Shown here piece after piece: positions 39,555-59,254 of a DNA stretch of 64,000 bases. The stretch is from assembly GCA_036502245.1 (NCBI GenBank), contig DASXYX010000024.1, positions 5,130-69,129 of the forward strand. Reading direction: 5' to 3'. The notes beneath the pieces are model-generated. The model searched no databases. It was not told the origin of the DNA and was given only the letters and a program-made list of their open reading frames with translations. The number at the start of each line of letters is the position of its first letter. Positions within the stretch are counted from its first letter, which is position 1. A program made the translations under genes and the position numbers. Source of the DNA: Verrucomicrobiia bacterium. GTDB taxonomy: Bacteria > Verrucomicrobiota > Verrucomicrobiia > Limisphaerales > UBA11358.

Positions 39555-39983
39555 CTATTTGAAAAGTTGAATTCGCGACAACCCAGCCGTGTCCGCCAGT
39601 TCAGCCTGGGCGACGTCACAGGTGATAAACATTTCGGCGCGCACGCGTTGCGCCACAGCAATGTGCACAAAATCCCACGTGCCGGCGGTGGAATTTTTGG
39701 CGTGTCGCGCGCTTAACTCATCCCCCCATTCCAGCAGATCGGATAAACGATGAATTCCTGGTTTGAGCCGCTGGGTTGTTTCGCTGGCGCGATAGGCATG
39801 CCAGGCGATCGCGGCGTATTTGCCAGACAGCCGGCGAAGATTGTGGCGCAGCTCCGTGCGCAACAGCGGATTCCAAAAAAATTCCGGCGAGTGTTCGCGA
39901 CACCATGCAGTCACCACCGGCGCAAATTCATCAACTGGATTAAACCATGCGACCAGCGCGGAAGTGTCCGCGTAAATTTTCAT
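39555..39983 (-). CDS. PIN-domain (VapC-like) toxin
   Basis: IYADTSALV, D.VHIA.A, FITCD..Q..LA; overlaps the antitoxin stop. Confidence 0.85.
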   Translation of the reverse strand: MKIYADTSALVAWFNPVDEFAPVVTAWCREHSPEFFWNPLLRTELRHNLRRLSGKYAAIAWHAYRASETTQRLKPGIHRLSDLLEWGDELSARHAKNSTAGTWDFVHIAVAQRVRAEMFITCDVAQAELADTAGLSRIQLFK

Positions 39984-40551: not shown

Positions 40552-42414
40552 ATGCCCGATATTGATTTACTGCACGAATACGCCCAATCCGGCTCCGAAC
40601 CGGCTTTCACCGCGTTGGTGGAACGGCATATCGGGTTGGTGTATTCCGCGGCATTGCGGCAGGTGGGCGATGCCCAATTGGCAGACGATATCACCCAGGC
40701 CGTCTTCATTATTTTGGCGAGGAAAGCCGGCAGGTTGCCCCGCGCCACTGTGCTGTCGGGTTGGCTGCTCAGAGCCACCCGCTTTGCCGCAAATGCCCAC
40801 ATCCGCTCCGCCATCCGGCGCACACAACGTGAACACGAGGCTTATATGCAATCCCTCAATGAACCCCATTCCCTGATCTGGGAGCAATTGGCCCCGCTCC
40901 TGGACGAAGCCATGGCCTCCCTGGGCACAACCGACCGCGCGGTGCTGGCGATGCGCTATTTTGAGAACAAAACCGCGCAGGAAATCGGCCAAATGTTGAG
41001 GTTGAACGAACAGGCGGCCCAGAAACGGGCCAATCGCGCGCTCGAAAAGCTTCGGAGCTTCTTCGCCAGGCGCGGGGTCAATTCCTCCGCCGAAACGATC
41101 GGCGAAACCATTTCCGCCCATTCCGTCCAGGTGGTGCCCCTAGCGATGGCCAAATCCGTTGCCGCCGTGGCAGTTGCCAAAGGCGCCGCCGCCTCAGCCT
41201 CAACCCTAACCCTCATCAAAGGAGCATTGAAAATTATGGCCTGGTCAAAAGCAAAATCCACCATCGCGGTCGCGGCCGTGGTGCTTTTAGGAGGCGGAGG
41301 CACAGCTATTGTCACGAAGGAAATAGTTCACGCCGTGCGGGTGGCGCATTATCCGGACATCCAGGGCGCGTGGGAGGGGGTCATGCTCGTTGATTATTAT
41401 CCCGGCGTGGTGAACGGCGAGTCGGCCAAAACCCATGTGGTGATCCATCTGGTCAAAAGATACGGCGTTTATTCAGCGACCGCTGACTTTATCGAGATGG
41501 GCCGAAAGAACGTTCCCATGGCCGGTGTTGTTTATGACTATCCATCGCTGCAGATCCAACAGACGGTGCGGGATGTGTGGAATTTAAAAGTAAATGCGAG
41601 TGCCAGGCAGATGAGGTGGGACCATTATATTCATTTCATTCAACCTGACCCTGTACAGTTGACGCGCACCACCGTACCGGACAAGGTTCCCGACCCGCTG
41701 ATGGAAGAAGATTTCACGCCACGCCACGGCTCCGATTTGCAGGGTTATTGGAAAGGACTATTAGGCGCCGGACCTGATGCGGTGCCAGTGGACCTGAAGA
41801 TTGCCGAGGAACCCGATGGAACATTTCAGGCGGAGGGTGACAACCCCATGGAAGGCGCGGACGGGGAGCCGCTGATCGTCACTTACAAGCGGCCCATGGC
41901 AACTTTTGCGGTGGCGTCAGGCGCCGGTGTGTTTCGCGGCCAGGTCAACGATGACGACACGGAAATCTCGGGCACCTGGGTACAAGGCGGCCAATCTCTC
42001 CCCGCCAGGATCAAGCGCGCCGATTATCAGGCCGAGCATGCGCAGGATGCGGAGAAGAATTACACATACACCTCGAAAGATGATTTGCAGGGACATTGGA
42101 AAGGATCATGGATCCTGACCGTATCAAAATCCAAGGCGACCATGCGCATGGCGCTCGATATTGCCAAACTGCCGGATGGTTCTTATTCCGCCACGATTTC
42201 GAGCGTGGACCAATTCGGATTTGACGCGCCGATACCGGCTTCTGATTTTCAATTTTCTTCGCCGAACGTTCATGCGGAATGGAAATGGGCGGGCGCGGGG
42301 TATGGCGGAGATGTGTCGCCAGGTTATGACGGAAAACTCGAAAACGGCAAACTCGTTGGCACATGGAATCAAAGTGGCGGCAGTTTTAAGCTGGTGTTTG
42401 AAAGACAGAACTAA
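40552..42414 (+). CDS. ECF sigma factor 1 fused to TM helix and three repeated extracytoplasmic beta domains
   Basis: [28 protein letters not shown], sigma4 region; DIQGAWEG / DLQGYWKG / DLQGHWKG repeats. Confidence 0.9.
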
Positions 42415-42431
42415 CTCTAATAACAATAAAT

Positions 42432-42653
42432 ATGAATAAATCGTTTATCCATCTATTGGCTATTGTTTCAGTCCCGTTGCTTTTGACCGGATGCGCAGGC
42501 CCCAACTTGTCTCTCGGCAGCGGATCCAAGACCGTCGTCGAAAAACCCACTCTCGGCCAACAACTCATTGATCTAAAAAAGGCAGAAGACAGCGGAGCAA
42601 TCACACCTTCAGAGTATCAGTCCCAGAAGGACAGACTTCTCCAGGGCAATTAA
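42432..42653 (+). CDS. Small lipoprotein with SHOCT domain
   Basis: LLTGC lipobox; LGQQLIDLKKA.DSGAITPSEYQSQK.RLL. Confidence 0.85.
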   Translation: MNKSFIHLLAIVSVPLLLTGCAGPNLSLGSGSKTVVEKPTLGQQLIDLKKAEDSGAITPSEYQSQKDRLLQGN

Positions 42654-42692
42654 GATGAAACATATCCGTCATGGACGGACTAAGAAGCAAGA

Positions 42693-42881
42693 ATGACAAA
42701 TCATGTTCCATTCCTCATTTGCACTTATGCAGGCTTTCTCCTGTTCAGCCTGTTTCAACAAACGCGATGGCTGCAACGGGTCAAATTCATCGGCTTGATC
42801 GCCCTGTGCGTACGGACCGCATGGTATGTAACGGGAGCGGTCGTCTGGTTTTGGTCGTGGCTTTACCAAAAGATGATATGA
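42693..42881 (+). CDS. Possible small membrane protein
   Basis: 62-aa hydrophobic ORF filling the gap; competing frames exist. Confidence 0.3.
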   Translation: MTNHVPFLICTYAGFLLFSLFQQTRWLQRVKFIGLIALCVRTAWYVTGAVVWFWSWLYQKMI

Positions 42882-42974
42882 TCGCGCCACTGAAAGCGTT
42901 GGTTTGGATGCCCATCCTCGACAACGTGGAATAGCGGATTTGACAGGGATCTGTCTACCGGTAATACTAACGGT

Positions 42975-43238
42975 ATGACCAACGCCAAATTGTTAAGTGT
43001 GAAAGTTCCGATGAGAGTTTTCCAGGCGCTGCCTGGAGCACATAAGGGACGCAGCCGGTTCATCATCGCAGCGTTGGAGGAAAAAATCCAGCGGGGACAG
43101 TCGGAATGGCAACCCACCAGCGAGCGCGGTCGCCGGCTCAAAGCCATTTTAGACAAGGGCGCGGCCGAACGCGGACCATTATTGGATGACGAGGGAATTG
43201 CCCGTGAGCTGCAGGAGCGCCGCGGGAGGTTCCATTGA
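42975..43238 (+). CDS. Putative RHH-type antitoxin
   Basis: LLSVKVP...RSRFIIAALEEK; TTGACA-17-AATACT promoter; overlaps the PIN gene. Confidence 0.75.
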   Translation: MTNAKLLSVKVPMRVFQALPGAHKGRSRFIIAALEEKIQRGQSEWQPTSERGRRLKAILDKGAAERGPLLDDEGIARELQERRGRFH

Positions 43239-43639
43239 AAACGATGCTCGATTCCAGCGTTTTGCTTCAGGCCTGGCGCGGAAATTCACCCCGATCGGCG
43301 GCCGCCAAGGAAATTTTGTCCGACCCGTCGCGTGATTTTGTCACCTGTGAAAACGTACAATTGGAATTGCTTCCCAAACCGGCCTTTGAGAAGCGCCATT
43401 CCGAAGTGGAATTTTACATGGCGCATTTTTCGGAAGCTTCCGCCTGCGAACGATTCAGCGAAGCACTGGGCAAAGCAGCGCTGGCACTGGCCACGCGACA
43501 CGGTTTGTCAGCGGGCGATGCGTTAAACCTGGCGTCCGCCATCAAGCTGGGCGCGAATGAATTCATTACAAGCGAATCGCCGGGCAAGCCGGTGTTCCGC
43601 ACTTCGGGGGTCAAAGTGATTTCGTTGCACTCCCTCTGA
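43235..43639 (+). CDS. PIN-domain (VapC-like) toxin
   Basis: MLDSSVLL, LELLPKP, GL.A.DAL.LA.A, FITSE. Confidence 0.85.
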   Translation: MKTMLDSSVLLQAWRGNSPRSAAAKEILSDPSRDFVTCENVQLELLPKPAFEKRHSEVEFYMAHFSEASACERFSEALGKAALALATRHGLSAGDALNLASAIKLGANEFITSESPGKPVFRTSGVKVISLHSL

Positions 43640-43760
43640 CCGGGGTTACGGGCAGCGTATCAGGACGACAGAAAATTTCGGCCCGCAATTTCTTTCCATC
43701 GGGGTGATCGGAAAAATTATTTCCGGTTTGCGGGCGTAGCGGCAATATACCTGTGAAACC

Positions 43761-45233
43761 ATGCCTGAGCCTGACAATCAGTTGGTCGCCGAATTCAATG
43801 CCCAGCGCAGTGAAACGGCATTCGCCGCCCTGGTGCGACAACACCTGAACATGGTGTTCTCCACCGCGTTGCGGCAGGTGGGCGATGCCGGTGCCGCGGA
43901 GGAGATAGCGCAAAATGTCTTTGTGGCGCTGGCGCAATCGTCGGGCAAATTGGAATCGCACCCAACGATCGCCGGTTGGCTTTACCAGACCACGCTGAAC
44001 AAAGCCCGCGAATGGGTTCGCTCGGAGTTGCGACGGCGGCGGCGCGAGCAAACGGCGGCGGACCTCAACCTGGCGCGTGCGGAAGGCGATTCCCTGTGGT
44101 CGCCGCTGGTTCCCCTGCTCGACGAGGCGCTCCTGCAATTGCATGAAACAGACCGGTCGGCGGTGGTCATGCGTTTCATGGAGGGCCAGACGTACCAGGA
44201 GGTCGGTTCGGCCCTGGACATCAGCGAAGACGCCGCGCGCAAACGCGTCAACCGCTGCCTCGAACAACTTACTCATTTTTTCCAATGTCGCGGCTTCACC
44301 ACGCCCGCTCTCGCGGTCGATGCGCCGCTTTTTGCGCTGGCCATGCATGTCGCGCCCGCTACGTTGGCAGGCCACGCAACCAAAACCGCGTTGGCAACCA
44401 CTCATTCCGCATCTTCAACCCTAACCCTTAAAGGAGCATTGAAACTTATGGCATGGACCAAAGCACATACCACCCTCACCGCCGGCATAGCCGCCCTGTT
44501 CGTCATCGGAGCCACCACTGCGACCGTTGTCACCGTCAAAAAAATCCAGGCGTACGAGGTGGAAAATTACCTCGCGCATTGGGACAAGATGAACCTCAAT
44601 GACGCGCCGTTGCCAAACGTGGCGCTGCTCCGGCCAACCCGCTACCAGAACCAGGGCGATTGGATCCTTATCGGCGGCACGGGACCTGACGACCGGGCTA
44701 TGCGCCGGGACGCCAGCTTTCAGGAAGTCCTCTCAACCGCGTATGGCTTCAGCCCCGAACAAATGGTTTTTAATACCCGGCTGCCACGCGGCGGATTTGA
44801 TATGCTCCTCACCACCCCCAGCAACTCCCGTGAGACGTTGCGCACCGAGATCAAAAAACAGTTCGGTATTGTCGCTCATCCGGAGACACGCGATATGGAT
44901 GTCCTGGTCATGAAAGATGGCAACACCAACGCATCCGGCATCAAGATCAGTGACGGCGGTGGGCCGAACATTTTGGAGGACGCCGGAAGCATCAAACTAC
45001 ACGGCTATACCATGGCTGATATCGCCCATCTGATCGGGACACTTGATCACAAGCCGGTGGTTGATGAAACGGGCCTGACCAACGCTTATGACGTGGATGC
45101 CAGTTGGGATCCCAAACTTCAGGGAAAAGCTTTGCAAAACAAGCTCGATGACATCATCCGTAACCAGTTCGGCCTTCAATTGACGCCGGACACACAGCCG
45201 GTCCAGGTTCTTGTCGTCGAAAAGGCAAAATAA
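43761..45233 (+). CDS. ECF sigma factor 2 fused to TM helix and TIGR03435/DUF3738-like domain
   Basis: Sigma2/sigma4 motifs; PVVDETGLTNAYD, QFGLQL...PVQVLVVEK. Confidence 0.9.
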   Translation: MPEPDNQLVAEFNAQRSETAFAALVRQHLNMVFSTALRQVGDAGAAEEIAQNVFVALAQSSGKLESHPTIAGWLYQTTLNKAREWVRSELRRRRREQTAADLNLARAEGDSLWSPLVPLLDEALLQLHETDRSAVVMRFMEGQTYQEVGSALDISEDAARKRVNRCLEQLTHFFQCRGFTTPALAVDAPLFALAMHVAPATLAGHATKTALATTHSASSTLTLKGALKLMAWTKAHTTLTAGIAALFVIGATTATVVTVKKIQAYEVENYLAHWDKMNLNDAPLPNVALLRPTRYQNQGDWILIGGTGPDDRAMRRDASFQEVLSTAYGFSPEQMVFNTRLPRGGFDMLLTTPSNSRETLRTEIKKQFGIVAHPETRDMDVLVMKDGNTNASGIKISDGGGPNILEDAGSIKLHGYTMADIAHLIGTLDHKPVVDETGLTNAYDVDASWDPKLQGKALQNKLDDIIRNQFGLQLTPDTQPVQVLVVEKAK

Positions 45234-45391
45234 CTGTCACCGTTCCCGCTTCGGCGGACACATATAGGTGTGATAGACAAATTCCGGCCCGGTACCCGTC
45301 TCTCTAAAGGCGGGCTTGTCCCGTTTATAAACTTTCTTTATTTTTGTAACTGTTATCAGAAAACAGTGTTTATATCATAAACACGGAATTT

Positions 45392-46186
45392 ATGACCAAA
45401 ACTCAAATCATTGCATGGGGCAGTGTGAGCGCGGTATTGATCGCGGCGGCTATCGCTGTGAAATTGATCTTTTTTCCGTCTCTCAGTGAGACATACTTCG
45501 CCGTCAGTTCCAGCCGGTTGAGGACCGTGCCTGCGGGATACGTTGTGGTGCGTCCGACCCACTCTGCCGCGCAGAGCCGGACCGCCCAAAATCGCATCGC
45601 TTATGCCACTAAAGGAAGCGAACGGATTGTCGGCGTCAATGTCACCTTTCATACCCTGATTTCGCTGGCTTACAGCCATGATCCGGCGCATATCACGTTG
45701 CCATGGAACGCGCCTACGAATCAAAATTACGACATCCTGGTCACCGCTCCCGGCGATATTTCGCAACACCTGCAAGCGGCCATCCGAAGCAAACTCGGTT
45801 TCGTAGCCGACGTAGAAACCAACGAAGTCGATGTTATGGCATTGAAGATTGAAAATCCAACGGCGCAGATGCAGAACTTCAAGCTCAGTCCGGACATTGA
45901 AAAAGAGAACGAAGACATGAAGAATGGCCGCCTCTATTTCACTCATACGCGGCTGTTAACCATAATGAACGGCCTTGAGCAGATCATCCGAAGCCCCGTG
46001 GTGGACGAGACCGGCCTCACCAATTCCTACGATTTCTCGGTCGCCTGGAGCACCCAACTGGAAAAGCAGTTGCAAGGCGGCACGTTCAGCAAAGATCTCG
46101 GGGCGAAAATCCTGAGCGATTGGGGGCTGGGAATGGAGCCGGACACGGCCCCGATCGCAATGCTCGTTGTAAAGAAGGCGCCCTGA
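45392..46186 (+). CDS. Stand-alone TM + TIGR03435/DUF3738-like protein
   Basis: N-terminal anchor; LISLAY, PVVDETGLTNSYDF, GL.MEP..API.MLVV. Confidence 0.85.
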   Translation: MTKTQIIAWGSVSAVLIAAAIAVKLIFFPSLSETYFAVSSSRLRTVPAGYVVVRPTHSAAQSRTAQNRIAYATKGSERIVGVNVTFHTLISLAYSHDPAHITLPWNAPTNQNYDILVTAPGDISQHLQAAIRSKLGFVADVETNEVDVMALKIENPTAQMQNFKLSPDIEKENEDMKNGRLYFTHTRLLTIMNGLEQIIRSPVVDETGLTNSYDFSVAWSTQLEKQLQGGTFSKDLGAKILSDWGLGMEPDTAPIAMLVVKKAP

Positions 46187-46304
46187 TGCAATCAATTGTC
46201 CTCTTTTGCCATTTTGCGGACATACTGTATAAGGGCATAAAGGCCTGTCATTGAACATAAATAAATATTTTGCGTCAAAATCGATTATATTATCAGCAAC
46301 TCGA

Positions 46305-47090
46305 ATGAACCAAAACCGGACCAATCAAGCCAGCAACCGTAAGGCATCGCCGCCTGGATTCACGTTGATCGAACTATTAGTCGTCATCGCCATCATCGGC
46401 ATCCTGGCAGGGTTGCTCCTGCCCGTCCTGGGGGCAGCCAAACGCCGCGCTGCCCAGGCCGCCTGCATCAATAACCAAAAACAACTCGGCCTGGGCATGA
46501 GAATGTATATTGATGATGCGCACGATACTTTTCCCGGCATGGCCTCCCAGCACAGCGGTTTCCAGACATCTGACTGGATCTATTGGCGCACCAATTCCTC
46601 TTTTCCCCAGGTCCAGCAAAGTCCCATTGTCCTCACGCTGGCCAATACCAGCGCCACTCTGTTCCGCTGCCCCCTGGACAGGGACGATACCGCGCGTTTC
46701 GCCATAGCCGAGAGCGACCCCACCGACGGCCCCTACTTGTACAGTTACAGTCTGACCAGCTATCTGCCCACCACCGACGCCAATGGAAATACTATCAGCC
46801 CGGGAATGTCCTCAAACTTTTCCCAGACACCGCCACTCCCGTTCAAGTTGAACCAGGTTCGCAATCCTTCGGGCAAAATCATGCTCGCCGAAGAAGTGGC
46901 CTCGGAGGGCGGCAGAGATAATCCCACGGGCGCAGGGGTCATCAATGACGGACGCTGGATGCCCCAGAACCCGGACATTTTGACCTCGCGGCATGATGGC
47001 AAGGCCGATGTGGTCTTTGCTGATTTCCACGTCGATCCCGAGACACCGGATTTCGGGGAGGATGTGAACAATTCTCAACCCGATTTATGA
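46305..47090 (+). CDS. Prepilin-type N-methylation / H-X9-DG family protein
   Basis: [43 protein letters not shown]. Confidence 0.9.
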
Positions 47091-47860
47091 ACCTGCATCA
47101 TCAATGCGAACCCCGCATGAGACGTGGATTCACATTGATCGAACTGCTCGTGGTCATCGCCATCATCGGCATCCTCGCCGCGTTGCTCCTGCCCGTCCTG
47201 GGCGCGGCCAAGCGCCGTGCCGCCCAGGCCGCCTGCATCAACAACCTGAAACAACTCGGCACGGGCATGAGGATGTATATTGACGACAACCACGATACTT
47301 TTCCCGGCATGGCCTCCGAGCACAATGGTTTTCAGACTTCTGATTGGATCTATTGGCGAACCAATACTGCTTATCCCCAGGTCCAGCAAAGTCCCATTGT
47401 CCTCACATTGGCCAACACCAGCGCCAGTCTTTTCCGATGCCCGTTGGATAGGGACGACAGCGCGCGGTTTGCCGAGGGCGCGAACGATCCGGCCAATGGC
47501 CCCTACATGTACAGCTACAGTTTGACCAGTTTCGATCCAGGCACCGATGCGAACGGCAATGCCGTTGCCATGGGAATGTCCTCAAATTTTTCAAAAAATC
47601 GCAACCTGCCTTTTAAGCTGGCCGCAGTCCGCAATTCCGCCGGAAAAATCATGCTTGCCGAAGAAGTCGCCTCCGCCGGTGGCAGCGACAATCCCACGGG
47701 CGCAACAGTGATCGATGACGGGCGCTGGATGCCGGCGGAACCTGACCTGCTGACCTCTCGCCACGATGGCAAGGCCGATGTGACCTTCGCCGATTTTCAC
47801 GTCGCCCCAGTCACCCCGGACTTTGCCCAGGACGTAAACAATTCCGAACCGGATTTGTGA
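47087..47860 (+). CDS. Prepilin-type / H-X9-DG family protein, close paralog of 46305-47090
   Basis: [29 protein letters not shown]; long stretches identical to the upstream gene. Confidence 0.9.
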
Positions 47861-48618
47861 ACCCTCGCCGCGCTTTCACCCTGATTGAACTGCTCGTCGT
47901 CATCGCCATCATTGTCATTCTGGCGGCGCTGTTGCTGCCGGCCCTGAACAACGCTAAAAACGATGGCGCCAAAACGACAGATCTCAGTAATTTCCATCAG
48001 ATAATGGCCGCTATTCATATTTACACTACGGATAATCGCGATTCGCTGACGTGGCCCAATTGGGACTATGGCAGGCCGATGCCCAACAAAACGACTCCTC
48101 CCGGCTGGCTTTATGAAATTAATCCTTCCGCCTCCGGTCCTGCCGCTTTTAACGCACAGGCGGGGTTGCTTTGGAACGTCTTGCATGGCGGCAAAATTCT
48201 TCTCTGCCCCATGGACAATCCCACGGAATCCTATCCGCCGGACAAGAATGGAAAAATCACCAGCCGCGCGGAGCAGCTTTCCAGCTACATAATGAACGGA
48301 GCGGTTATTGGCTTCCGAACCGGCTATCGATCTAACGCACCGCCCGTCAAAATTTCCCAGATGAACGCCGGAGATTGCTTGTTCTGGGAGGCGGACGACC
48401 GGATTGCTTTTGCGTTCAATGATGGATCGAGCTGGCCGTTGGAAGGAGTCACCGCGCGCCATGCAAATGGCGCCACCTGGGCCGCCATCGATGGTTCTTC
48501 GAGATATATCCGCGATCTCGATTGGACCAGCGAGGCAAAGGATACTAATAAAAATAGCCTCTGGTGCTTTCCGTTAACGCCCGACGGCGGCGACCGCGTA
48601 TATGGACACGACCGCTGA
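47857..48618 (+). CDS. Prepilin-type / H-X9-DG family protein
   Basis: [31 protein letters not shown] overlap with the previous gene. Confidence 0.88.
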
Positions 48619-48695
48619 CCGGGAGTCCATCTCATTCAGTTTGACCTGCAAAATTAATTGTCTCCTTTTCCCGCCGGTGTCCATTTATTAAGTGG

Positions 48696-50171
48696 ATGAT
48701 GAATGATGACATCGCGCTGGTACGCAAATACGCCGCCAGCCGTTCCGAACAGGCCTTTGAGACACTGGTCACGCGCCATGTCAATCTTGTCTATTCGGCA
48801 GCCATCCGGCAGGTCAACGATGCCCACCTGGCCGAGGACGTCACCCAGGCGGTCTTTGTCATCCTGGCGCGAAAAGCCTCGTCGCTTCCCGCCAAAACCG
48901 TCTTGTCCGGCTGGCTTTACAAAACCGCGCGCTTCGTCGCCGCCGACGCTCTCAAAACCCAACGCCGTCGCGAGCGGCGCGAACAGGAGGCCCATATGGA
49001 ATCTCTCAATGACTCCGTGCAACTCGATTCCGAATGGCAAAAACTCTCTCCCTTCCTCGACGAGGCCATGGCGCATTTGCATGACACAGACCGTAACGCC
49101 GTCGTGTTGCGCTTTTTTGAAGGCCGCAACTTGCAGGAGATCGGCACAGCCCTCGGCTTGAGCGAGGACGCCGCCAAAAAACGCGTCAGCCGCGCCCTTG
49201 AGAAGCTCCGCAAATTTCTCGCCCGCCGCGGCGTCGATTCCACCACCACCGCCATCGGCGAAACCATCGCGGCCAATTCCATCCAGGCCGCCCCCGCAGT
49301 TCTCGCCAAATCCATTACCGCCGTGGCCGTCGTCAAAGGCGCCGCCGCTTCAACCTCAACCTTAACCCTCATCAAAGGAACTCTAAAAATTATGGCATGG
49401 TCCAAAACTCAAACCGCGATTGTCGCCGGCGTGGTTGTGCTCTTCGCAGCCGGAACTGCCACCGTAACCGTTAAACAAATCGAAAAGGCGCACACTTCGG
49501 ACAATGCATGGCGAAATCCAAACATCGATTCGGGCACTGTCGATAAACTGCCGCCAAAACTGGAGATCGCGCCGACAATATTCCCGAAGGGAGGAAATTG
49601 TTCAGCCGGATACGGAAGTCTTAAATGTGTCGGAATCGACCAATCGGTCGCCAACCTCATCAACTATGCCTATGACTGGCCGCAAGCCCGGATGGTTTTT
49701 CCCGGCGGCCAGCAACCACAGGAGAAATACGATTTCGTTGCCACCCTCCCCCAAGGAAACCGCGAAGCCTTGAAAGACGAATTGAAGAACAGATTGGGGT
49801 GGGTCGGACATCCTGAAACCAGAAACGAAGACGCCCTGCTGCTCGTAACAGTCAATGCAAACGCTCCCGGATTACACCCACCGACAAAGGGGAATTATTC
49901 CTACATGAACGGGAATGGGAATCGAATGAAAATCACCTGGGCAAATGAACCCATCTCTACAATAGATTTTTTCCTCCAGGGCAGCTCGCCTATGCCGATC
50001 ATCGATGAAACTCACGACACTAAACATTATAACGTCGATCTCAAATGGACCGAAGACCTGGCGGACCCAGAACATACCGCCCTGCAAAAGGTCATGCGAG
50101 AGCAACTCGGTCTCGTGCTGGTTCCCACCAATATGCCCATCGATATGCTCGTCGTCGAAAAAGTGAAGTGA
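48696..50171 (+). CDS. ECF sigma factor 3 fused to TM helix and TIGR03435-like domain
   Basis: Sigma2/sigma4 motifs; PIIDET...Y...L.W, EQLGL.LVP...P..MLVVEK. Confidence 0.9.
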
Positions 50172-50249
50172 TCTCCGCCTGGATGATTCCCAAAGTCACC
50201 TTTAAAAATAGTTGTCTGCCGTCCGGTCATGGCGGCAATAATACTATGA

Positions 50250-51806
50250 ATGCAAGATTTTCAGGACACGGACTTGTTGCGCAGCTATGCCCGGCATAAT
50301 TCGGAAGCCGCCTTTTCAGAATTAGTGCGCCGGCACATCGGCCTGGTCTATTCCGCCGCCCTTCGCCAGGTCAACAACCCGGCGCAGGCTGAAGAGATCA
50401 CCCAGGCGGTCTTCATTATCCTTGCCCGTAAAGCCGCTCTCCTGCGTTCAAATGTTGTTCTGGATGGCTGGCTCTATGAAACCACACGATTCACCGCCTT
50501 AAGCGCGCTTCGCGCCGAACGGCGGCGGCTATTCCGCGAACAGGAGGCTTTTATGCGATCCAACATGGATGAGACCGATGCTCCCTTGCTTTGGAACCAA
50601 CTGGCTCCATTGTTGGAGGAAGCCATAGCGCGGCTCGGCAAAACAGATCGCGATGCCCTGGTCCTGCGTTTTTTTAAAGGTAAAAGCGTGCGCGAAGTCG
50701 CCACGGTGATAAACATGACCGAAGCGGCGGCGCAACGGCGCATCCTCCGCGCCCTCGAGAAACTCCGTAAGTTTCTCGCCCGGCGCGGAATCAATTCCAC
50801 CGCCGGCGCCATCGGCGAAACCATCGCCGCCAACTCCATTCAGGCCGCGCCCATCGCCCTGGCCAAATCTGTGACTGCCGTAGCCGTTGCCAAAGGCGCG
50901 GCCGGTTCCGCATCAACTTTAACCCTCATCAAAGGAGCATTGAAACTTATGGCATGGACTAAAACTCGAACCACCATCGTAACCACCGCAATCGTGTTGC
51001 TGATGGCAGCCGGAACCACTGCAACCGTCAAAGATGTTGAATACCACCAATACGCCCGAAAATATTATACCTGGCAGGTCCGACAGGCGGATTTCGGCGT
51101 TTTCTACAAAGCCTTGCCACAGATCTCAATCCTGCCCACCCGGTTCGAAGGTGATACCAATGGCGGTTGGTGCGCAGACGGCAGCAGAGGCGCTATGGGC
51201 ATTGACCAGCCGATCAAAGAAATGGCCGAAGTTGCTTACCAGCAGGATGACCTGCACACCGTTGCGATCTCCGGTCTGCCGACCAACCGGTATGATTTTC
51301 TGGCGAAATTGGTCGGCCCCATGGTTCAACATCAAAATTTTCCTCAAAATGAGAAATGGGCCGGTGAATTTCAAAAAGCCATCGCCAAACAGCTTGGAGT
51401 CACTGGCCGGTTTGAAATGCGAAACACAGACGTTTGGCTTCTGAGGCCTGTTCCCGCCGGGGTTCACGGTTTCAAAACCAGCCATGGCATGCCGGGCGGC
51501 ATAGCGGTTAAATCCATCCATCAGGCAGGTCCGACGAGTATCACGGTTGGCAATGAATACCACGAGCAACCCGTCAGCACATTCATGTATATGCTTCAAT
51601 TCAACCTCAAGCAAACGGTCGTTGATGATACGGGTTTGACCAATTCTTACGATTTTTCTTTCACCTGGACACAAGACAAGGACGTGCGTGGCATGCCTTT
51701 GCCGGACATTGACGAACTAAATCCATTGCTCACCGATCAACTTGGCCTCGAACTCGTCTCCACCAATATGCCCGTCCGAATGCTCGTCGTCGAAAAGGTG
51801 AAATAA
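50250..51806 (+). CDS. ECF sigma factor 4 fused to TM helix and TIGR03435-like domain
   Basis: Sigma2/sigma4 motifs; VVDDTGLTNSYDF, DQLGLELV. Confidence 0.9.
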   Translation: MQDFQDTDLLRSYARHNSEAAFSELVRRHIGLVYSAALRQVNNPAQAEEITQAVFIILARKAALLRSNVVLDGWLYETTRFTALSALRAERRRLFREQEAFMRSNMDETDAPLLWNQLAPLLEEAIARLGKTDRDALVLRFFKGKSVREVATVINMTEAAAQRRILRALEKLRKFLARRGINSTAGAIGETIAANSIQAAPIALAKSVTAVAVAKGAAGSASTLTLIKGALKLMAWTKTRTTIVTTAIVLLMAAGTTATVKDVEYHQYARKYYTWQVRQADFGVFYKALPQISILPTRFEGDTNGGWCADGSRGAMGIDQPIKEMAEVAYQQDDLHTVAISGLPTNRYDFLAKLVGPMVQHQNFPQNEKWAGEFQKAIAKQLGVTGRFEMRNTDVWLLRPVPAGVHGFKTSHGMPGGIAVKSIHQAGPTSITVGNEYHEQPVSTFMYMLQFNLKQTVVDDTGLTNSYDFSFTWTQDKDVRGMPLPDIDELNPLLTDQLGLELVSTNMPVRMLVVEKVK

Positions 51807-51852
51807 ACATTTTCTTTGTCCCGTTTTGGGGTTCATGGACATCATGGGGTAA

Positions 51853-53319
51853 ATGCCAGAACAGGACGACCATCAATTGCTCGCCGATTTTGCCCGTAGC
51901 GGTTCGGAAACCGCTTTTTCCGAACTGGTACGCCGGTATATCGCCCTTGTCTATTCCACCGCGCTCCGGTTCACCAGCAATCCCCATCACGCGGAGGAGA
52001 TCGCCCAGGCCGTGTTTGTCATTCTCGCGCAGAAAGCCGGCACATTGTCGTCGCGCGTCATCCTCTCCGGCTGGCTGTACCAGACGGCGCGGCTGACTGC
52101 GGCTAATTTTGTGAAAGGTGAAATCCGGCGCGCACACCGCGAACAGGAGGTCTATATGCAATCCATCCTACCCGACCCTGAACTCGCCGACTGGAACAAA
52201 ATTGCCCCGCTGCTCGATGAAGCCATGGGCAGCCTCGGCGAAACCGATCGCAATGCCCTCGTCCTGCGCTTCTTTGAAAATTGCACTTCGGCGGAGATCG
52301 GCGCGGCGTTGCGGATGAACGAAGAAACCGCCCGCAAACGCGTGAATCGCGCCCTGGATAAACTGCGAAAAATTTTCAGCGCTCATGGCGTGAGTTCCAC
52401 GGCGGAAGCCGTCGCAGGAGCTATCGCCGCTAATTCCCTTCAGGTGGTGCCCGCATCCGTTGCCCAATCAGTGACCGCCGCAGCCGTCGTCAAAGGCACA
52501 GCCGTTTCAACCTCAACCCTAACCCTCATCAAAGGAACTCTAAAAATTATGGCATGGTCCAAAACTCAAACCGTCATTGTCGCCGGTGTCATTGTGCTGC
52601 TCGCGGCCGGAACTACTACCGCAACCGTTAAGCACATTCAAACCGTGCGGCTGCATGAAAATCTCTGGCGATACCCGGACATCAATTCAATGAGCCTGGC
52701 TAAAGTGCCGCCGGCGGTGGACATCCTGCCGACCATTTTCCCCAAAGGCGGCAATTCGGCATCGACCGACCGGAAATACGTCGGGATCGATCAATCAGTC
52801 GTCAACATCGTCGCCGATGCCTACAATTGGCCGCAGGCCAGGATTGTTTTCACCGATGGTCAGCCGCCCGAAAGATACGATTACATCGCCAGTCTCCTGA
52901 ACGGATCCCGCGAAGCGTTGCAGGACCAATTGAAGAAAAAATTAGGACTGGTGGCGCATCCTGAAATGAGAAACGAAGATGTCGTGCTGCTCGAAATGCA
53001 GAATCCTCACGCGCCGGGCCTTCACCCGCCGGTGGCAGGAACCACCAGCGATATGACCATGAATGGCAACCAAATCGAATTATCGTGGCAAAACAGGTCC
53101 ATCTCCAGCATGGCGGATCGTCTCCAAATGGCTTCCCCCCTGCCCATCATTGATGAGACGCATAGCACAAAACATTATAGCATCGATATTACCTGGCAGG
53201 AGGACCCGCAGGACCCGGAACATACCGCGCTGCAAAAAGTCCTGCGCGAGCAACTCGGCCTGATATTTGTTCCCACCAACATGCCCGTGAAAATGCTCGT
53301 CGTTGAAAAGGTGAAATAA
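51853..53319 (+). CDS. ECF sigma factor 5 fused to TM helix and TIGR03435-like domain
   Basis: Sigma2/sigma4 motifs; C-half closely similar to ECF 3. Confidence 0.9.
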   Translation: MPEQDDHQLLADFARSGSETAFSELVRRYIALVYSTALRFTSNPHHAEEIAQAVFVILAQKAGTLSSRVILSGWLYQTARLTAANFVKGEIRRAHREQEVYMQSILPDPELADWNKIAPLLDEAMGSLGETDRNALVLRFFENCTSAEIGAALRMNEETARKRVNRALDKLRKIFSAHGVSSTAEAVAGAIAANSLQVVPASVAQSVTAAAVVKGTAVSTSTLTLIKGTLKIMAWSKTQTVIVAGVIVLLAAGTTTATVKHIQTVRLHENLWRYPDINSMSLAKVPPAVDILPTIFPKGGNSASTDRKYVGIDQSVVNIVADAYNWPQARIVFTDGQPPERYDYIASLLNGSREALQDQLKKKLGLVAHPEMRNEDVVLLEMQNPHAPGLHPPVAGTTSDMTMNGNQIELSWQNRSISSMADRLQMASPLPIIDETHSTKHYSIDITWQEDPQDPEHTALQKVLREQLGLIFVPTNMPVKMLVVEKVK

Positions 53320-53340
53320 TTTACCTTCTCATGTCTGATA

Positions 53341-54132
53341 ATGGCGGACATAACGAGGAAGATAATGACATGGCCACAGCAGGGGCATACAATCGCCGTC
53401 AAACAAAACGGCTGTATGCAATCCGTTCATTTCAATTCCCGATCTATCCTACAATTCCTGGGGATGATTGCCTTTGTTTGGTTTTCCACACCCTTGTTTG
53501 CCGTAGCGGGGCAGATTTATCTCGGCCCGGGAAATTCAGGCGACTCCAGCGGCGGCTCGGACTGGCTCACCGGGGCCAATGGCGGAGGAGTCACTACCCT
53601 GGATTGGGATGACCCGCCGACCACCGGCAGCTTTGATTTCAGCATCAGCAATGCCGTGGCCGGCAAAGGCAACAATGGAGATTGGCGCTGCCCGCCCTTT
53701 TCGCTCGGACCCGCCGCCAGTGGCGCAAGGTCCCTTACATTTTCTTTCGCGTATAAGCTTGTGAGCCCCGTAGCCAAAGGAAATAATATCTACGTGCAGT
53801 TGCGCTTTTTCGATGCCACCGGAACCAATTTTATTTCCCAAATTGTCCTGCCCCTCGGCGCGCACACCGCCGATTCACAAATGGCCGACTACAAAACACG
53901 CACTATCGAGAATATTCCCGTCCCTCGTAGAGCGCGAACGGCGGACATCTGGATTGACGCCAATATCTTCGAACCGTGGGTATCGGGCGTCGCGCGCTTT
54001 GGTAATTTCTCTGTCACTACCGTACCACGCTCACTGGCATTCAAAGCGGGTGTCGCCTTTGGCGTTCTCTTCAGCTTCGGCGCTTTGATCTGGATTTCAG
54101 CGTATTTCTGGCAGCGATCCAGGCCGTCGTGA
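53341..54132 (+). CDS. Hypothetical exported protein with C-terminal TM anchor (possible carbohydrate-binding beta sandwich)
   Basis: Signal-like segment after M at 53416, [11 protein letters not shown]-terminal hydrophobic helix; start uncertain. Confidence 0.7.
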
Positions 54133-54989
54133 TTATGAAACGTTCCGGAGCCTTCACATTGATTGAATTGCTGGTGACCATTGCCATCATCGCTATCCTT
54201 GCCGCCCTGCTCCTCCCGGTCCTGAACCGCTCCAAACAAAAGGCCTGGCAAGCCGATTGCCTGAACAACATACGTCAACTCCAATTGGGTTGGCTGACTT
54301 ATGCCAACGATTCCAACGATCATGTACCCTACAACTCTTCCGGTGATAACGCCGGCCAGACTCCTGAAAATCCAGGTTGGGTCGCCGGAGACATGTACCT
54401 GGATTGCGATGCAGGCCAGGACCTGACCCAAAGCACCAACACTCAATTCCTTGTCGGACCTCAATATGCACAATTTGGCTCCATCGGCGGCTATGTCAAA
54501 AATCCGACCGTCTATCACTGTCCGGCGGATATGAGCACGGTGACCATCGGAGGTGAGAAGTTGCCGCGGGTGCGGAGCATGTCCATGAACAATTACATGG
54601 GGGCGATGGAATTGCCGGGCTTTCGCTATTTCATGAAATTGCAGGAAATCACCGCGCCCGGCCCAAGCGATGCCTGGGTCTTCATGGATGAACGCGCCGA
54701 TTCCATCAATGACGGTTTGTTCGCCGTGGACGCTGCATCGCAATACGCCATCATCGATTATCCTTCGTGCTATCACGATCGCGGCTCATCCATCTCCTTC
54801 GCCGATGGCCATGTCGAATATCATCACTGGATCGAACCAACCACCGACCCGCCGATGGATGTCAGCCAGCATCTTCCCGGCGGGTCCAAGCTGACTTCGC
54901 CCAATGACCGTGATATGCAATGGCTTGTCTTGCATACCACCAGCAAAACGCCTGATAAGCCCTCGGTTCATTCCAGGTCGCATAAATAA
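54129..54989 (+). CDS. Prepilin-type / H-X9-DG family protein
   Basis: [40 protein letters not shown]. Confidence 0.9.
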
Positions 54990-55070
54990 TTTCTTACTCC
55001 CTCTCCCTTCGGCGTAAGTCTCTCATATTTCAGTTGAGTTACCCGGCATAAGTCCCATCATTCAAGGGCT

Positions 55071-55559
55071 ATGACGAATAGCGATTCGGAAGATACCCTG
55101 GTCATCCTCAAACCCGACTCTTTCTGGCGCAAATTGGACACGCAAGTCGTCAACCGCATAAAATCCCTGGGACTAAAAGTCACCGCCGAACGTGTCCTCC
55201 AGGGCAGCGAGAATCTTTCTGAACCAAAATGGCGCGAATTTTATTTTCCCTCCATCGGCAGCCGCCCACCGTGCCTGGAGGGAACCTCAAAATACATGGC
55301 CCATGGCCCGGTGCAGGTCATCCAGTTGCACGGTGCGAATGCCATCCAAACAGTCCGCACAGCCATTGGCGCGACTTTTCCATCCAAAGCGGCGCCGGGC
55401 ACCATTCGCGGTGATTTTTGGCCCGGCGCCACCGAAGCCAACGCGCCCTATCGCCTCAAATTCCAACAACCCGGTGACGACCAATTCCTTTTCAATATGA
55501 TCCATGCCTCGGATTCCCCACAAAGTTTTGCAAGAGAGATCCAGTTCTTTAAATTTTAA
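55071..55559 (+). CDS. ndk: Nucleoside-diphosphate kinase (divergent)
   Basis: TLVILKPD, GP, VR..IGAT.P..A.PGTIRGDF, NMIHASDS. Confidence 0.85.
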   Translation: MTNSDSEDTLVILKPDSFWRKLDTQVVNRIKSLGLKVTAERVLQGSENLSEPKWREFYFPSIGSRPPCLEGTSKYMAHGPVQVIQLHGANAIQTVRTAIGATFPSKAAPGTIRGDFWPGATEANAPYRLKFQQPGDDQFLFNMIHASDSPQSFAREIQFFKF

Positions 55560-55602
55560 AATATCCTGTTACCTTTCCCATTCCGCGTAAATATATGGGT
55601 AA

Positions 55603-57045
55603 ATGAACGACGATTTAGCGCTGCTGCGCGAATATGCCCGGAACGGTTCGGAACCGGCCTTTGCCGCGCTTGTTGGGCGGCATATTCATCTCGTCTATTC
55701 CGTGGCGTTTCGTCAAACACAGGACGCCCATCTCGCCGAGGAGATCACCCAGGCCGTTTTCATCATTCTCGCGCGCAAAGCTGGGTCGCTTGGCGATAAG
55801 ACCGTTTTGAGCGGCTGGCTTTGCCGAACTGCCCGCTATGCCGCCGCCAATGCTCTCAAAATCCAGACGCGCCGCCAGCACCGTGAACAGGAGGCTTATA
55901 TGCAATCCACTTTGAACGAACCCGCCCCCGATGAAACCTGGCATCAGATTTCCCCCCTGCTCGACGACGCCATGCGCAAGCTTGGGCAAAAAGACCACGA
56001 TGCCCTCGTCCTGCGATATTTTGAGAACCGCAATTTTGCCGAAGTCGGCGCCACCCTTGGCGCCAGCGAAGACGCCGCCAAAATGCGCGTAAGCCGCGCG
56101 CTGGAAAAACTACGGCAATTTTTCGCCAAACGCGGTGCCTCATCCACCACTGAATCCATCGCTGAAAACATCTCCCATCATTCCATTCAATTCGCGCCCG
56201 AAGCCTTGGTCGTCACTGTCTCCGCCACTGTTGCCAAAGGGTCAACCGCCGCAGCCTCCACCCTTACCCTTGTGAAATCAACCCTTAAGATTATGACTTA
56301 CGCAAAGCTTAAACTATCCCTGGGCATCGCCGCCGCCATCCTGCTCACTGCCGGAGCTGCGACCGTCGCAATTTCCCAAATCGATGCGGATCAAATTCGC
56401 GATTCCTTGACGCCGCAACAAATAATTCAAAAGTCACAAGACGCCTACACCTCCCTTTCCAGTTACAGCGACAACGGAGAAGTCGTTTCCGCCGTGAATG
56501 GCATGACCCTGACAAACTTTTTTACCATCAAACTGGCACGACGGGATTTATATCGTGTTCATACCGAATCGGTTTCAGGGGGCTTCACAAATTCAGAGAC
56601 GACCTGGTCAGGGAATGACGGAGATTATATGCAGATGAACAATGGCCAGGTATTTCGGCGAAATGACGGGCTTTGGGGCGCGGGTGGGCAGGTTCCGGCT
56701 ATTCCGGGCACCTTTTTCAAAACTCCTTGGGGTAATCAACTGGGCCTGCCTGTATCGGGTGAAAAACAGGAAACAGATGCAAGAACCGGTGATACGGACT
56801 GTTATGTTTTCGTTAATACACTCGGTGGAACAACAAGAACGTTATGGATCGGCAAAAAAGATTTTTTGATTCGCCAAATACAAAATATATCCGATCCAGA
56901 AGCTGTAAAAGCTGCGCTCGAACACGCTGCAAAAGTCACCGGCAAACCCGCTCCCAAGCTGCCTCCTGGAAGCATCACGTCAACCGAGACCCACGAAAAC
57001 ATCGTATTAAACAAAAAGTTGTCACTCCCGGATTTTCAGCAGTAA
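55603..57045 (+). CDS. ECF sigma factor 6 fused to TM helix and LolA-like/DUF2092-like domain
   Basis: Sigma2/sigma4 motifs; AY.SL.SY.D.G, F.IKLAR..LYR, TLWIGK.DFLIRQ; domain call by eye. Confidence 0.85.
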   Translation: MNDDLALLREYARNGSEPAFAALVGRHIHLVYSVAFRQTQDAHLAEEITQAVFIILARKAGSLGDKTVLSGWLCRTARYAAANALKIQTRRQHREQEAYMQSTLNEPAPDETWHQISPLLDDAMRKLGQKDHDALVLRYFENRNFAEVGATLGASEDAAKMRVSRALEKLRQFFAKRGASSTTESIAENISHHSIQFAPEALVVTVSATVAKGSTAAASTLTLVKSTLKIMTYAKLKLSLGIAAAILLTAGAATVAISQIDADQIRDSLTPQQIIQKSQDAYTSLSSYSDNGEVVSAVNGMTLTNFFTIKLARRDLYRVHTESVSGGFTNSETTWSGNDGDYMQMNNGQVFRRNDGLWGAGGQVPAIPGTFFKTPWGNQLGLPVSGEKQETDARTGDTDCYVFVNTLGGTTRTLWIGKKDFLIRQIQNISDPEAVKAALEHAAKVTGKPAPKLPPGSITSTETHENIVLNKKLSLPDFQQ

Positions 57046-57097
57046 TGATCTTAAATAAACTGTCGGATTTTCGCGGCTGGCGCACACTTATGGGTGA

Positions 57098-59254
57098 ATG
57101 CAGCCCATGGATGATAACGCCCTCTTAAGGCAGTTTATCGAAGAAAAATCGGATGATGCCTTTGCCGCTCTCGTGAAGCGGCACATCCATTTTGTCTATT
57201 CCATTGCGTTGCGCCAGACCGCTCACCCGCAGATGGCCGAGGAAATCACCCAGGCGGCGTTCATTATCCTCGCGCGCAAAGCCGCCGGTCTGCGCCATGA
57301 AAAGGCGCTTTCCAGTTGGCTCTTCCAAACAACTCGTCTCACGGCCAATAATTTGTTGCGCAGCGAAATCCGGCGGCAGAATCGCGAACAGGAGGCTTTT
57401 ATGCAATCCGCTTTGAATGAACCTGAGAATGCGTCCTGGCAGCAAATCGCTCCGTTGCTCGACGAGGCGGTGGCGGCCATGCGCGAAAAGGATCGCCGGG
57501 CAATCCTCCTGCGGTTTTATGAAGGGAAAAATTTGCGCGACGTCGGCGCCGCATTGGGCACGAATGAAGACGCGGCGCAAAAGCGAGTTGAGCGCGCCCT
57601 GGAAAAACTCCGGACATTTTTCACAAAGCGTGGAATCCGCTCCACCGCCACGACGATCACCGAAGCCATCTCCGCCAATTCCCTTCAACTCGCGCCTGAA
57701 ATGCTTATTGCCACAATCGCTTCATCCACCGTCAAAGGATCGACGACTGCGGCATCCACCCTCTCCCTTGTGAAAACGACCCTCAAGCTTATGACCTACG
57801 CAAAAATTAAATTGTCCCTGGGCATCGCGGGCGCCATTCTGCTCGTCGCCGGAACTGCGACCGTCGCCATTTCCCAGATCAACAACGGCCAGACAGCCAG
57901 TCCTTTGACGCCCTATCAAACCAATATTCAAACACAGAAACCCGACGTCCCGGTTGTCGCCGACGGTGATAACGCGCAAATCGTAGCCGACCCGAACGAC
58001 ACGGCCATTGCCACCGGCTTCACGAACAACTTGAATTCGGACGATAAAGAACGGAATACGGCGTTGCAAAGGGCGTTCGACCAATTTCCATTGTTCACGC
58101 CCAGCACGAATGCCGACGGCCAACTGGATTTTCAAACTCTTCCACTGGCTGATCCTGTCGTGATCAATCACGAGCGGTTTTTTGGTTTTCGTTTCACGGT
58201 ACCCGCGCGCGCTCATCACGAAGATTTGGTCTGGGGATTCGCCCTGCCCGGTGACTTAAAGGAATGGTATATCGTTCCTCAGACCGGTTCCATGGAAGGT
58301 TTTGAAAATTATAACTTCACGTCAAAAGGCGATTATCTGCGGGAAAAACCACTCCTGCCCATGAACGCCAACAGGTTGATTTTACAACATCTCGCCGGCG
58401 ATCGTTTGAAGGATGGCCAGACCTATCTCATCTGGTTCGGGTTTGGAAATTACAACGCACCCGGCATGTCAGTGATCTTTACGTTCACCAACTTCGACGC
58501 AAACCCGCCGCATCCCATTATCAGTTTCGAGCGAGCGCTCGCTTTGAATGAACTGGACAGTAAGCCTGTGGTCAACCCTGCAAATCACCACACCTATATG
58601 CTCCTGCGGCCGACAAATTGGCAGCGCGCCGAAAAACTCGCCGAACAACTTGGCGGCCATCTGGCCACCGTTCGCAATCAGGCGGAGGAGGATTGGATCT
58701 TCGATACTTTCGGGCACTACGGCGGTTGCCGGCGATCGTTGTGGATCGGCCTGAACGACCTGGACAAGCGTTTTCATTTCAGTTGGGCCGGTGGCGAGTC
58801 CGCCTCATACACCGACTGGGCTCCTTATGAACCGAATAACGCCGGACCGCGGGGTGAGGATTATGTCGCCATTTATTATCCAGGCCATGCCCATGCCAAT
58901 GAATGGAGAGTCTGGAACAGTCGGCGTCGTGACCCGGGTGGCCCGCCAATGGATGGTGTCGTGGAAATCATTCCAAATACCGCCACATCATCGGCTCCGG
59001 TCGTGCCTGTTGCCAATACCGCGCCGGTGCAAATCCTTCCCAATGTCACCGTTACCAGCACCAGTGGCAGCATCGAGTTGGCGTGGCCGCTCTCCGCTGC
59101 CGGATACATATTGGAAGCCACCACCAATCTGTCGCAGCCCTTTGCCGAATTTGGTTATTCTGAGGAAACAAACACCCAGGACGGCGTCATCTACGTGAAC
59201 ATCACCAATCCCGCGCCGCAAATGTTCTTCAAACTAAAAGAAATCCAGCCCTGA
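57098..59254 (+). CDS. ECF sigma factor 7 fused to TM helix, unknown domain, C-type lectin domain and C-terminal extension
   Basis: W..AE..A..LGGHLATV....E..WI, WIGLND, YTDWAPYEPNN, EDYV; tail LAWP....YILEATTNL...FFKL. Confidence 0.88.
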   Translation: MQPMDDNALLRQFIEEKSDDAFAALVKRHIHFVYSIALRQTAHPQMAEEITQAAFIILARKAAGLRHEKALSSWLFQTTRLTANNLLRSEIRRQNREQEAFMQSALNEPENASWQQIAPLLDEAVAAMREKDRRAILLRFYEGKNLRDVGAALGTNEDAAQKRVERALEKLRTFFTKRGIRSTATTITEAISANSLQLAPEMLIATIASSTVKGSTTAASTLSLVKTTLKLMTYAKIKLSLGIAGAILLVAGTATVAISQINNGQTASPLTPYQTNIQTQKPDVPVVADGDNAQIVADPNDTAIATGFTNNLNSDDKERNTALQRAFDQFPLFTPSTNADGQLDFQTLPLADPVVINHERFFGFRFTVPARAHHEDLVWGFALPGDLKEWYIVPQTGSMEGFENYNFTSKGDYLREKPLLPMNANRLILQHLAGDRLKDGQTYLIWFGFGNYNAPGMSVIFTFTNFDANPPHPIISFERALALNELDSKPVVNPANHHTYMLLRPTNWQRAEKLAEQLGGHLATVRNQAEEDWIFDTFGHYGGCRRSLWIGLNDLDKRFHFSWAGGESASYTDWAPYEPNNAGPRGEDYVAIYYPGHAHANEWRVWNSRRRDPGGPPMDGVVEIIPNTATSSAPVVPVANTAPVQILPNVTVTSTSGSIELAWPLSAAGYILEATTNLSQPFAEFGYSEETNTQDGVIYVNITNPAPQMFFKLKEIQP

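Follow-up and report, generated by a model that had tools for sequence, protein, structure and literature searches.

Two conserved in-frame methionines as candidate internal starts in membrane-anchored ECF sigma factor genes of a Verrucomicrobiia bacterium

The stretch of DNA analysed (the window; 64,000 nucleotides of contig DASXYX010000024.1, assembly GCA_036502245.1, from a Verrucomicrobiia bacterium of the order Limisphaerales) contains seven paralogous genes, E1 to E7, each encoding a sigma2 and a sigma4 domain, followed by a linker rich in Ala, a single membrane helix and an outer domain that varies. In a domain scan PF04542 together with PF08281/PF04545, as well as TIGR02937, scored above cut-off in all seven products, which are extracytoplasmic function (ECF, group 4) sigma-70 factors with Sigma70_r2 and Sigma70_r4 joined by a short linker. 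The single clear hydrophobic helix lies at M233+8 to +26 (E3 numbering), and the outer domains, which include DUF3738 in E2–E5 and a C-type lectin domain in E7, vary freely behind a conserved junction. Two in-frame methionines are conserved in this family, one between sigma2 and sigma4 (site 1, M101) and one ahead of the membrane helix (site 2, M233); the codons around them are constrained, their context resembles that of starts, and stand-alone open reading frames (ORFs) begin at site 2. The interpretation that we favour, with the balance of probability moderately on its side, is that each gene would give rise to three nested proteins through two internal starts, and that the two forms devoid of sigma2, themselves incapable of initiating transcription, would damp the full-length sigma factor. 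The features are listed below (SD, Shine-Dalgarno sequence; TM, membrane helix; aa, amino acids; N, any nucleotide).

40552–42414, plus strand: E1, ECF sigma2-sigma4-linker-TM-outer domain, 620 aa
40837–40848, plus strand: E1 site 1, GAGG (40837–40840) N5 ATG (40846), CAC GAG G; predicted 522-aa isoform
41218–41238, plus strand: E1 site 2, AAAGGAG N11 ATG (41236); predicted 392-aa TM and outer-domain isoform
43761–45233, plus strand: E2, ECF-TM-DUF3738, 490 aa; site 1 absent, site 2 present
44430–44450, plus strand: E2 site 2, AAAGGAG N11 ATG (44448)
45392–46186, plus strand: stand-alone TM and DUF3738 gene, 264 aa
48650–48695, plus strand: promoter-like motif upstream of E3, with an A/T tract followed by TGTCTC and, about 11 nt from the ATG, TGTCCAT
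48696–50171, plus strand: E3, ECF-TM-DUF3738, 491 aa; reference for the numbering M101, M233
48985–48998, plus strand: E3 site 1, AGGAGG N5 ATG (48996, M101); predicted 391-aa isoform
49374–49394, plus strand: E3 site 2, AAAGGA N12 ATG (49392, M233); predicted 259-aa isoform
50250–51806, plus strand: E4, ECF-TM-DUF3738, 518 aa
50542–50555, plus strand: E4 site 1, AGGAGG N5 ATG (50553)
50931–50951, plus strand: E4 site 2, AAAGGAG N11 ATG (50949)
51853–53319, plus strand: E5, ECF-TM-DUF3738, 488 aa
52145–52158, plus strand: E5 site 1, AGGAGG N5 ATG (52156)
52531–52551, plus strand: E5 site 2, AAAGGA N12 ATG (52549)
55603–57045, plus strand: E6, ECF-TM-outer domain, 480 aa
55889–55902, plus strand: E6 site 1, AGGAGG N5 ATG (55900)
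56272–56295, plus strand: E6 site 2, A/T/C-rich context without SD, ATG (56293)
57098–59254, plus strand: E7, ECF-TM-outer region with C-type lectin domain, 718 aa
57390–57403, plus strand: E7 site 1, AGGAGG N5 ATG (57401)
57770–57793, plus strand: E7 site 2, context without SD, ATG (57791)

A preliminary description of this DNA had reported an in-frame (AG)GAGG-N5-ATG between sigma2 and sigma4 in every gene but E2, and its coordinates were exact for all six, as were the varying spacer residues (AY, AH, AF, VY). The Glu codon, said to be always GAG, was GAG in 6/6 genes of the window and almost always so in the homologs considered below. The base before ATG, also given as invariably T, was T in 6/6 window genes but T in 81, C in 81, A in 10 and G in 2 of 174 homologs. 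The sole other AGGAGG-N5-ATG of the window is at 60410, within an unrelated ORF (59810–60895). The source genome has 17 family members, and two other genomes have 34–36 copies; E-[QH]-E-x-x-M is found in 12 of the 17, always coded GAA-CA[GC]-GAG (12/12).

The 5-nt spacing at site 1 is fixed by the peptide Q-E-[AV]-x-M, and therefore the tests were made on codon choice and on retention of the methionine. Homologous loci were fetched by peptide patterns lying away from site 1 (209 hits, 207 distinct), and removal of 19 homologs with at least 85% DNA identity left 188 genes with a median identity of 64%. M101 was present in 174/188 of these, and the flanking codons were GAA at E96 (175/187), CAG at Q97 (162/170), GAG at E98 (170/178) and CAA at Q102 (143/153). 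The background use of GAG is 36% of Glu elsewhere in the homolog genes and 38% in the source genome, where 5 of 63 E-Q-E tripeptides outside the family are coded GAA CAG GAG. Codon choice at Q-E-x-x-M across these diverged homologs exceeds background, as expected from the preliminary description. On the protein tree the synonymous change rates of E96, Q97, E98 and Q102 (0.035–0.059) were the lowest of 42 two-fold columns (median 0.213); Y33, distant from both sites, had a rate of 0.071. Five of the six two-fold columns of site 1 were among the six highest-ranking of 47 (P about 2e-5); this naive P value ignores kinship and overstates the significance, since the homologs share ancestry. The peptide was present in 124 of 151 genomes of the genus searched by pattern, and nearly all of the 150 matches listed (286 others lay outside the listing) read CGN GAA CAG GAG G by eye. 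Three homologs retained CAG GAG GYN YAY in the absence of ATG, and had GTG, GTG and CTG instead.

An order-wide search found the family in 41/61 genomes. From it a set of 71 genes belonging to other families of the order was obtained, composed of the genes of 29 best-hit loci and of 40 regions chosen by lower score from 222 matches, blind to the site; some overlap with the 188-gene set at the genome level is possible. All 71 genes had a methionine at W+24 to W+35, in eight different registers (+27 to +35), as compared with 2–18/71 for control 12-aa windows and 37/71 for the window containing M125. An SD energy of −6 kcal/mol or below was found at 40/71 linker methionines versus 7/135 other methionines, and the G+C content at third codon positions dropped from 0.74 to 0.60 past the linker methionine. 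Further away, reading by eye found the linker methionine in 15 of 19 distant homologs; it was also present in 94/136 anchored ECF57-like representatives (from 149 representatives with less than 50% identity) and in 29/54 genes of another class, 36 of the matches in that class coming from one genome. The same SD-ATG layout is produced there by different peptides (REEEVM, YEESAM, EKEAAEM). Among the other ECF factors of the source genome, 2/11 had the linker methionine. One of that genome's ECF genes (C58, a 755-aa frame with a different extension) carries AGGAGG-N6-ATG just ahead of sigma4, and a relative (C65) has no methionine there. The planctomycete DNA covered was a single plasmid-borne gene (L149), which has the site-2 methionine and lacks that of site 1.

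The conserved unit at site 1 thus appears to be the methionine, the SD being optional. Internal initiation at this residue, as put forward in the preliminary description, gains good comparative support, and the predicted product keeps an intact sigma4; the SD emphasised there is not the part conserved, and the dominant-negative or anti-sigma role proposed there for the product is still a hypothesis. The site-1 column was exchanged for R, P, D, E, T and K as readily as for V or L. The structural methionine of the HGPM motif, kept in 95/149 representatives, was replaced by L in 51/54 substitutions, so that the substitutes at site 1 are unlike those of a structural methionine. In an AlphaFold model (mean pLDDT 84, pTM 0.46) M101 opens a confidence dip (residues 101–110, pLDDT 67) inside a long helix, and sigma4 is modelled entirely downstream of it. 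P0005, a called protein whose first residue is the site-1 methionine, was set aside as uninformative; it sits on a 1,519-base contig.

Site 2, overlooked in the preliminary description, seems better supported than site 1 as an internal start. It was found post hoc, and one of the two fetch patterns spanned its residues, not its codons. The strongest codon bias of the alignment lies at positions 220–236 (TCA ACC TTA ACC CTC ATC AAA GGA GCA TTG AAA ATT ATG), with rare codons close to fixation at G228 (GGA in 151/158; background 12%) and L223 (TTA in 112/168; background 2%), together with TCA at S221 (140/172) and GCA at A229 (116/130). In the other class the Gly of site 2 is GGA in 14/18 cases, versus 94/707. 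The mRNA around site 2 was the least structured window tested, and in 94% of 50 genes its stability fell below that of synonymous shuffles. On a cross-validated model of native starts, site 2 ranked at the 99.5th percentile of internal ATGs, the held-out native starts having a median at the 98.5th and the control M125 falling at the 23rd. The site-2 methionine was detected in 68/71 genes of the other families, mostly without SD (SD in 6/68); two of the three misses do show it, the extracted sequence having ended early. It lies within 7 columns in 142/149 representatives, and a neighbouring methionine compensates for its loss in 33/40 rows, as compared with 1/54 for the structural methionine.

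Other conceivable sources of such constraint are a programmed frameshift or overlapping frame, a CsrA site and a conserved RNA structure, all of which we consider extremely improbable. SD-like words and +1-frame stops do occur near L223 and L230, and the +2 frame over 175–222 is open in 152 genes versus 81 expected, an excess that we infer to be due to shuffles ignoring codon-pair bias. The +1 frame is not kept open over 101–222 (7 observed, 8.6 expected), no consensus structure was found in eight windows, and CsrA was not found in the source genome, which is 92% complete. Pairing of site 1 with the stretch upstream of site 2 was no better than control.

Genes that begin at site 2 and lack the sigma part were also found. 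Twelve ORFs matched site 2 without sigma4, three of them at locus edges and one being an internal match. One outer-domain clade, present in 18/121 genomes, gave 25 distinct site-2 ORFs, of which 12 were stand-alone (no sigma within 800 nt), 11 fused, one at an edge and one broken; 8 of the 12 stand-alone ORFs had no other in-frame ATG upstream. The stand-alone genes retain the final 10–25 nt of the site-2 element, preceded in some by a decayed or frameshifted remnant of the linker and in others by unrelated DNA, and one more has GTG at site 2. Since decayed linker-coding DNA lies upstream of several of them, these would derive from fused genes. The window gene at 45392–46186 has the size and domain layout of the site-2 isoform (25% identity to the M233 product of E3, E 9e-15), without the site-2 motif. 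An outer-domain clade with a weak match to 3-keto-disaccharide hydrolase was seen both fused and stand-alone, often on the same contig (L083, L107, L051, L009, L357–L381), and some of its stand-alone copies have TTTACA..TATAAT-like words upstream. The TM and outer-domain module was also seen behind other N-terminal domains (L072:1495–3124, L369, L378), with a Cys-rich, zinc-ribbon-like head in L072.

A different history is conceivable, in which the outer-domain genes were once separate, site 2 is what is left of their start, and recombination at a module-swapping junction has kept it uniform; neither site would then initiate in fused genes, and the SD-like words would act as pause signals or arise by chance. 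The freely varying outer domains and the occurrence of stand-alone and fused forms side by side on the same contigs fit such a history, which we nevertheless regard as very improbable: the decayed linkers place several stand-alone genes after the fused ones, homogenising recombination would not yield a site-2 methionine that persists in SD-less subfamilies of unrelated sequence (68/71) and across classes, and pausing leaves the required methionine unexplained.

The genes of the family are preceded by a promoter-like motif made up of an A tract, TGTYMC-TTT, N13–14 and YGNNNAT, ending about 10–11 nt before ATG, in which the −10-like part differs between paralogs. A strict pattern of this motif matched 62/177 upstream regions, and an SD was found at 1/177 native starts. 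The family mRNAs are predicted to be near-leaderless, and the motifs are likely autoregulated promoters with paralog-specific recognition. The same two methionines might then be starts on separate shorter mRNAs, leaderless or with a short leader, made from internal promoters. The native starts described above set a precedent for this, CGAACA-N10-ATG at site 1 resembles a −10-like element with its spacing, and the nucleotide constraint reaches past the SD (E96 GAA, L223 TTA, S221 TCA). A weight matrix of the family promoter matched neither strand at site 1 (best total in the coding region about −17, versus +30 for native promoters), in a scan that covers family-type specificity only, and we hold internal promoters to be distinctly improbable. 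As a family-type internal or antisense promoter, site 2 was rejected, its antisense strand being only weakly −35-like (−3.4 versus 28.6).

Several observations, besides the shared ancestry already mentioned, weigh against the reading of three nested proteins. The evidence for internal starts is entirely comparative. Site 1 is absent from E2 and from 42/136 representatives, it reaches only the 88.5th percentile on the native-start model, and its mRNA shows no reduction of structure relative to synonymous shuffles. An intact stand-alone gene beginning with sigma4 was not found, L033 and L097 looking broken. The source genome is scarce in SDs: of 266 unambiguous starts in a heuristic ORF set, none has AGGAGG and 8 have GGAG; SD-like pairing was found at 10.5% of starts versus 20.2% of internal ATGs, and AGGAGG is not avoided in coding sequence (observed/expected 1.0), so that the SDs at the two sites need not act as such. 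Ribosomes may, as the rpsU pattern suggests, pass over short SDs. In 23/25 genomes of the order (L262–L286; G000:C30 near 48640) rpsU is preceded by an extended SD (GGARAGGAAGTGA-like, the start being mostly TTG or GTG), and anti-SD pairing was −15.5 for rpsU, −12.0 for site 1 and −9.5 for site 2. In Flavobacterium the extended rpsU SD is read only by ribosomes lacking bS21 and requires very strong pairing (PMC9976891, a text whose accessible part does not mention Verrucomicrobia), and the pattern in this order suggests bS21 autoregulation like that of Bacteroidia. The scarcity of SDs agrees with reports, as far as their accessible text goes, that Verrucomicrobiales lack them (PMC10798248, PMC10783764). 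A few ORFs of the source genome seem to begin behind a strong SD. Broken family copies (L033, L097, L052, L074, L368), carrying a stop within sigma2, frameshifts, or deletions by which sigma2 is fused to the end of the linker or to the outer domain, may be pseudogenes or assembly errors.

Some of these points would be accommodated if only site 2 were a real start and the site-1 methionine were kept for the protein, for instance as a cleavage or oxidation site in the linker, its codons reflecting ancestry. The weaker start-context score of site 1, the SD-scarce host and the lack of a sigma4-first gene agree with this, and the HGPM methionine illustrates how well a methionine can be conserved for protein reasons. 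It does not sit well with a methionine kept in 71/71 genes in a shifting register, with the enrichment of SDs and the drop in third-position G+C at it, with the same layout built from different peptides in another class, or with the lowest synonymous rates on the tree, and we judge it rather improbable.

Taken part by part, the reading with two internal starts is strongest at site 2, which is very probably a used start in the fused genes, while initiation at site 1 is likely. Given initiation, a damping function has a little less than an even chance. The full-length protein would be made from a near-leaderless mRNA under a conserved, probably autoregulated promoter, and would be freed from the membrane by regulated intramembrane proteolysis, as for IutY; an M50-family protease is present. 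Initiation at M233 would give a TM and outer-domain protein sharing the signal and the proteases of the full-length form. Since only about 8 residues of this product are cytoplasmic, it could hardly be a classical anti-sigma factor, and it may be a threshold-setting decoy or co-receptor, or perform the outer domain's own job. Initiation at M101 would give sigma4, linker, TM and outer domain. The sigma4 domain binds the polymerase flap and the −35 element, and competition is for this reason the most likely effect of the M101 form: after cleavage the released form, with its sigma4 intact, would be a competitor for core RNA polymerase or the −35 element that does not melt the −10 element, and would thereby limit positive feedback. 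A wider extension, which we find unlikely but worth stating, is that the ECF57-like superfamily (7,547 cluster representatives match one member at E ≤ 1e-30) carries a one-frame circuit of activator, sigma4-only inhibitor and sensor-only decoy in ratios set by internal ribosome entry. In this SD-scarce order, ribosomes whose anti-SD tail is free (e.g., those lacking bS21) would be the main readers of the SD-led middle form, which would couple sigma damping to ribosome state.

Other genes are interspersed with the array. Prepilin-type N-methylation genes lie at 46251–48618, 54129–54989 and 61556–62365 (four were scanned, three with DUF1559), toxin-antitoxin type genes, two with PIN domains and one of the ParE family, at 39555–39983, 43235–43639 and 61206–61517, and a nucleoside diphosphate kinase-like gene at 55071–55559.

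ECF57, one of the closest known systems, was originally described by Jogler et al. in 2012. ECF57 factors have a C-terminal extension with about 2 membrane helices on average and a variable outer domain, and release from the membrane has been proposed (PMC7826278, PMC8999054); a pair of Cys residues, located singly in sigma2 and in sigma4, is fully conserved in them, they are 100% from Planctomycetes and they have no conserved promoter motif (PMC7826278). The accessible part of that description does not mention internal starts; the classification is also covered in bioRxiv 2019.12.11.873521. The window genes share the fusion of sigma2 and sigma4 to an extension with a membrane helix and a variable outer domain, and differ in having one helix and a conserved promoter-like motif, and in coming from Verrucomicrobiota, most close relatives being Verrucomicrobiota or Limisphaerales. 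They also lack the Cys pair: over the first 235 aa Cys is absent from E1, E3, E4 and E7, occurs twice in E2, both times past residue 165, and once each in E5 and E6. They are ECF57-like, yet depart from ECF57 in Cys pair, taxon and promoter. Distant representatives with the ECF57-like consensus, one labelled Gemmataceae, keep both internal methionines. In some genomes of the phylum the ECF57-like factors have undergone strong expansion; they have no anti-sigma gene, and their control is left unexplained in the accessible text of the classification papers. A negative regulator, missing as a separate gene, may lie within the sigma reading frame itself.

The Pseudomonas putida protein IutY, a sigma/anti-sigma hybrid, joins a cytosolic ECF factor and a periplasmic domain in one polypeptide that is activated by Prc and RseP cleavage (PMC5411451), and the terms "internal" and "start codon" are absent from the accessible text of that paper. 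By analogy IutY may serve as the model for release in the window genes, which also combine a sigma factor and an extracytoplasmic domain; IutY works with an outer-membrane receptor. In-frame internal initiation was reported for E. coli ArcB/ArcB-C and RpnE-C/YpaA, the product being shown by western blot (bioRxiv 10.1101/520783). In ArcB, likewise a membrane signalling protein, the internal start and its SD are conserved and lie where two domains meet, with synonymous conservation as evidence, and in this type, as here, the isoform also exists as an independent gene. The window genes differ in having two sites, one of which would split the sigma factor, in that both products, predicted from sequence, would stay membrane-targeted, and in methionines that are kept across classes of the phylum and in ECF57-like relatives. 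SigR' of Streptomyces coelicolor is reportedly an N-terminally extended, still active sigma factor, neither SigR form being devoid of sigma2. The two isoforms of this one ECF factor tune the response (PMC4921905). Tuning by two isoforms is common to SigR/SigR' and the proposal made here, while a form without sigma2 is predicted only for the window genes. In the split sigma factor SigO-RsoA of Bacillus subtilis the sigma2 and sigma4 parts are separate polypeptides from two genes that activate together, whereas here there is one gene and no sigma2-only product is predicted. Planctomycete ECF factors have been detected by proteomics, with no mention of isoforms in the accessible text (PMC8567305), and full-text searches, in which subscription papers are mostly not covered, returned nothing on internal starts in these sigma factors. 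In-frame internal initiation is thus already known, and the new element would be two conserved internal starts in membrane-anchored sigma genes. If true, this would be the first case in the literature searched of a sigma factor gene making its own sigma2-less form; it would explain how outer domains detach as ready-made stand-alone genes, and would make it possible to study, at a conserved site, what SDs do in bacteria that rarely rely on them.

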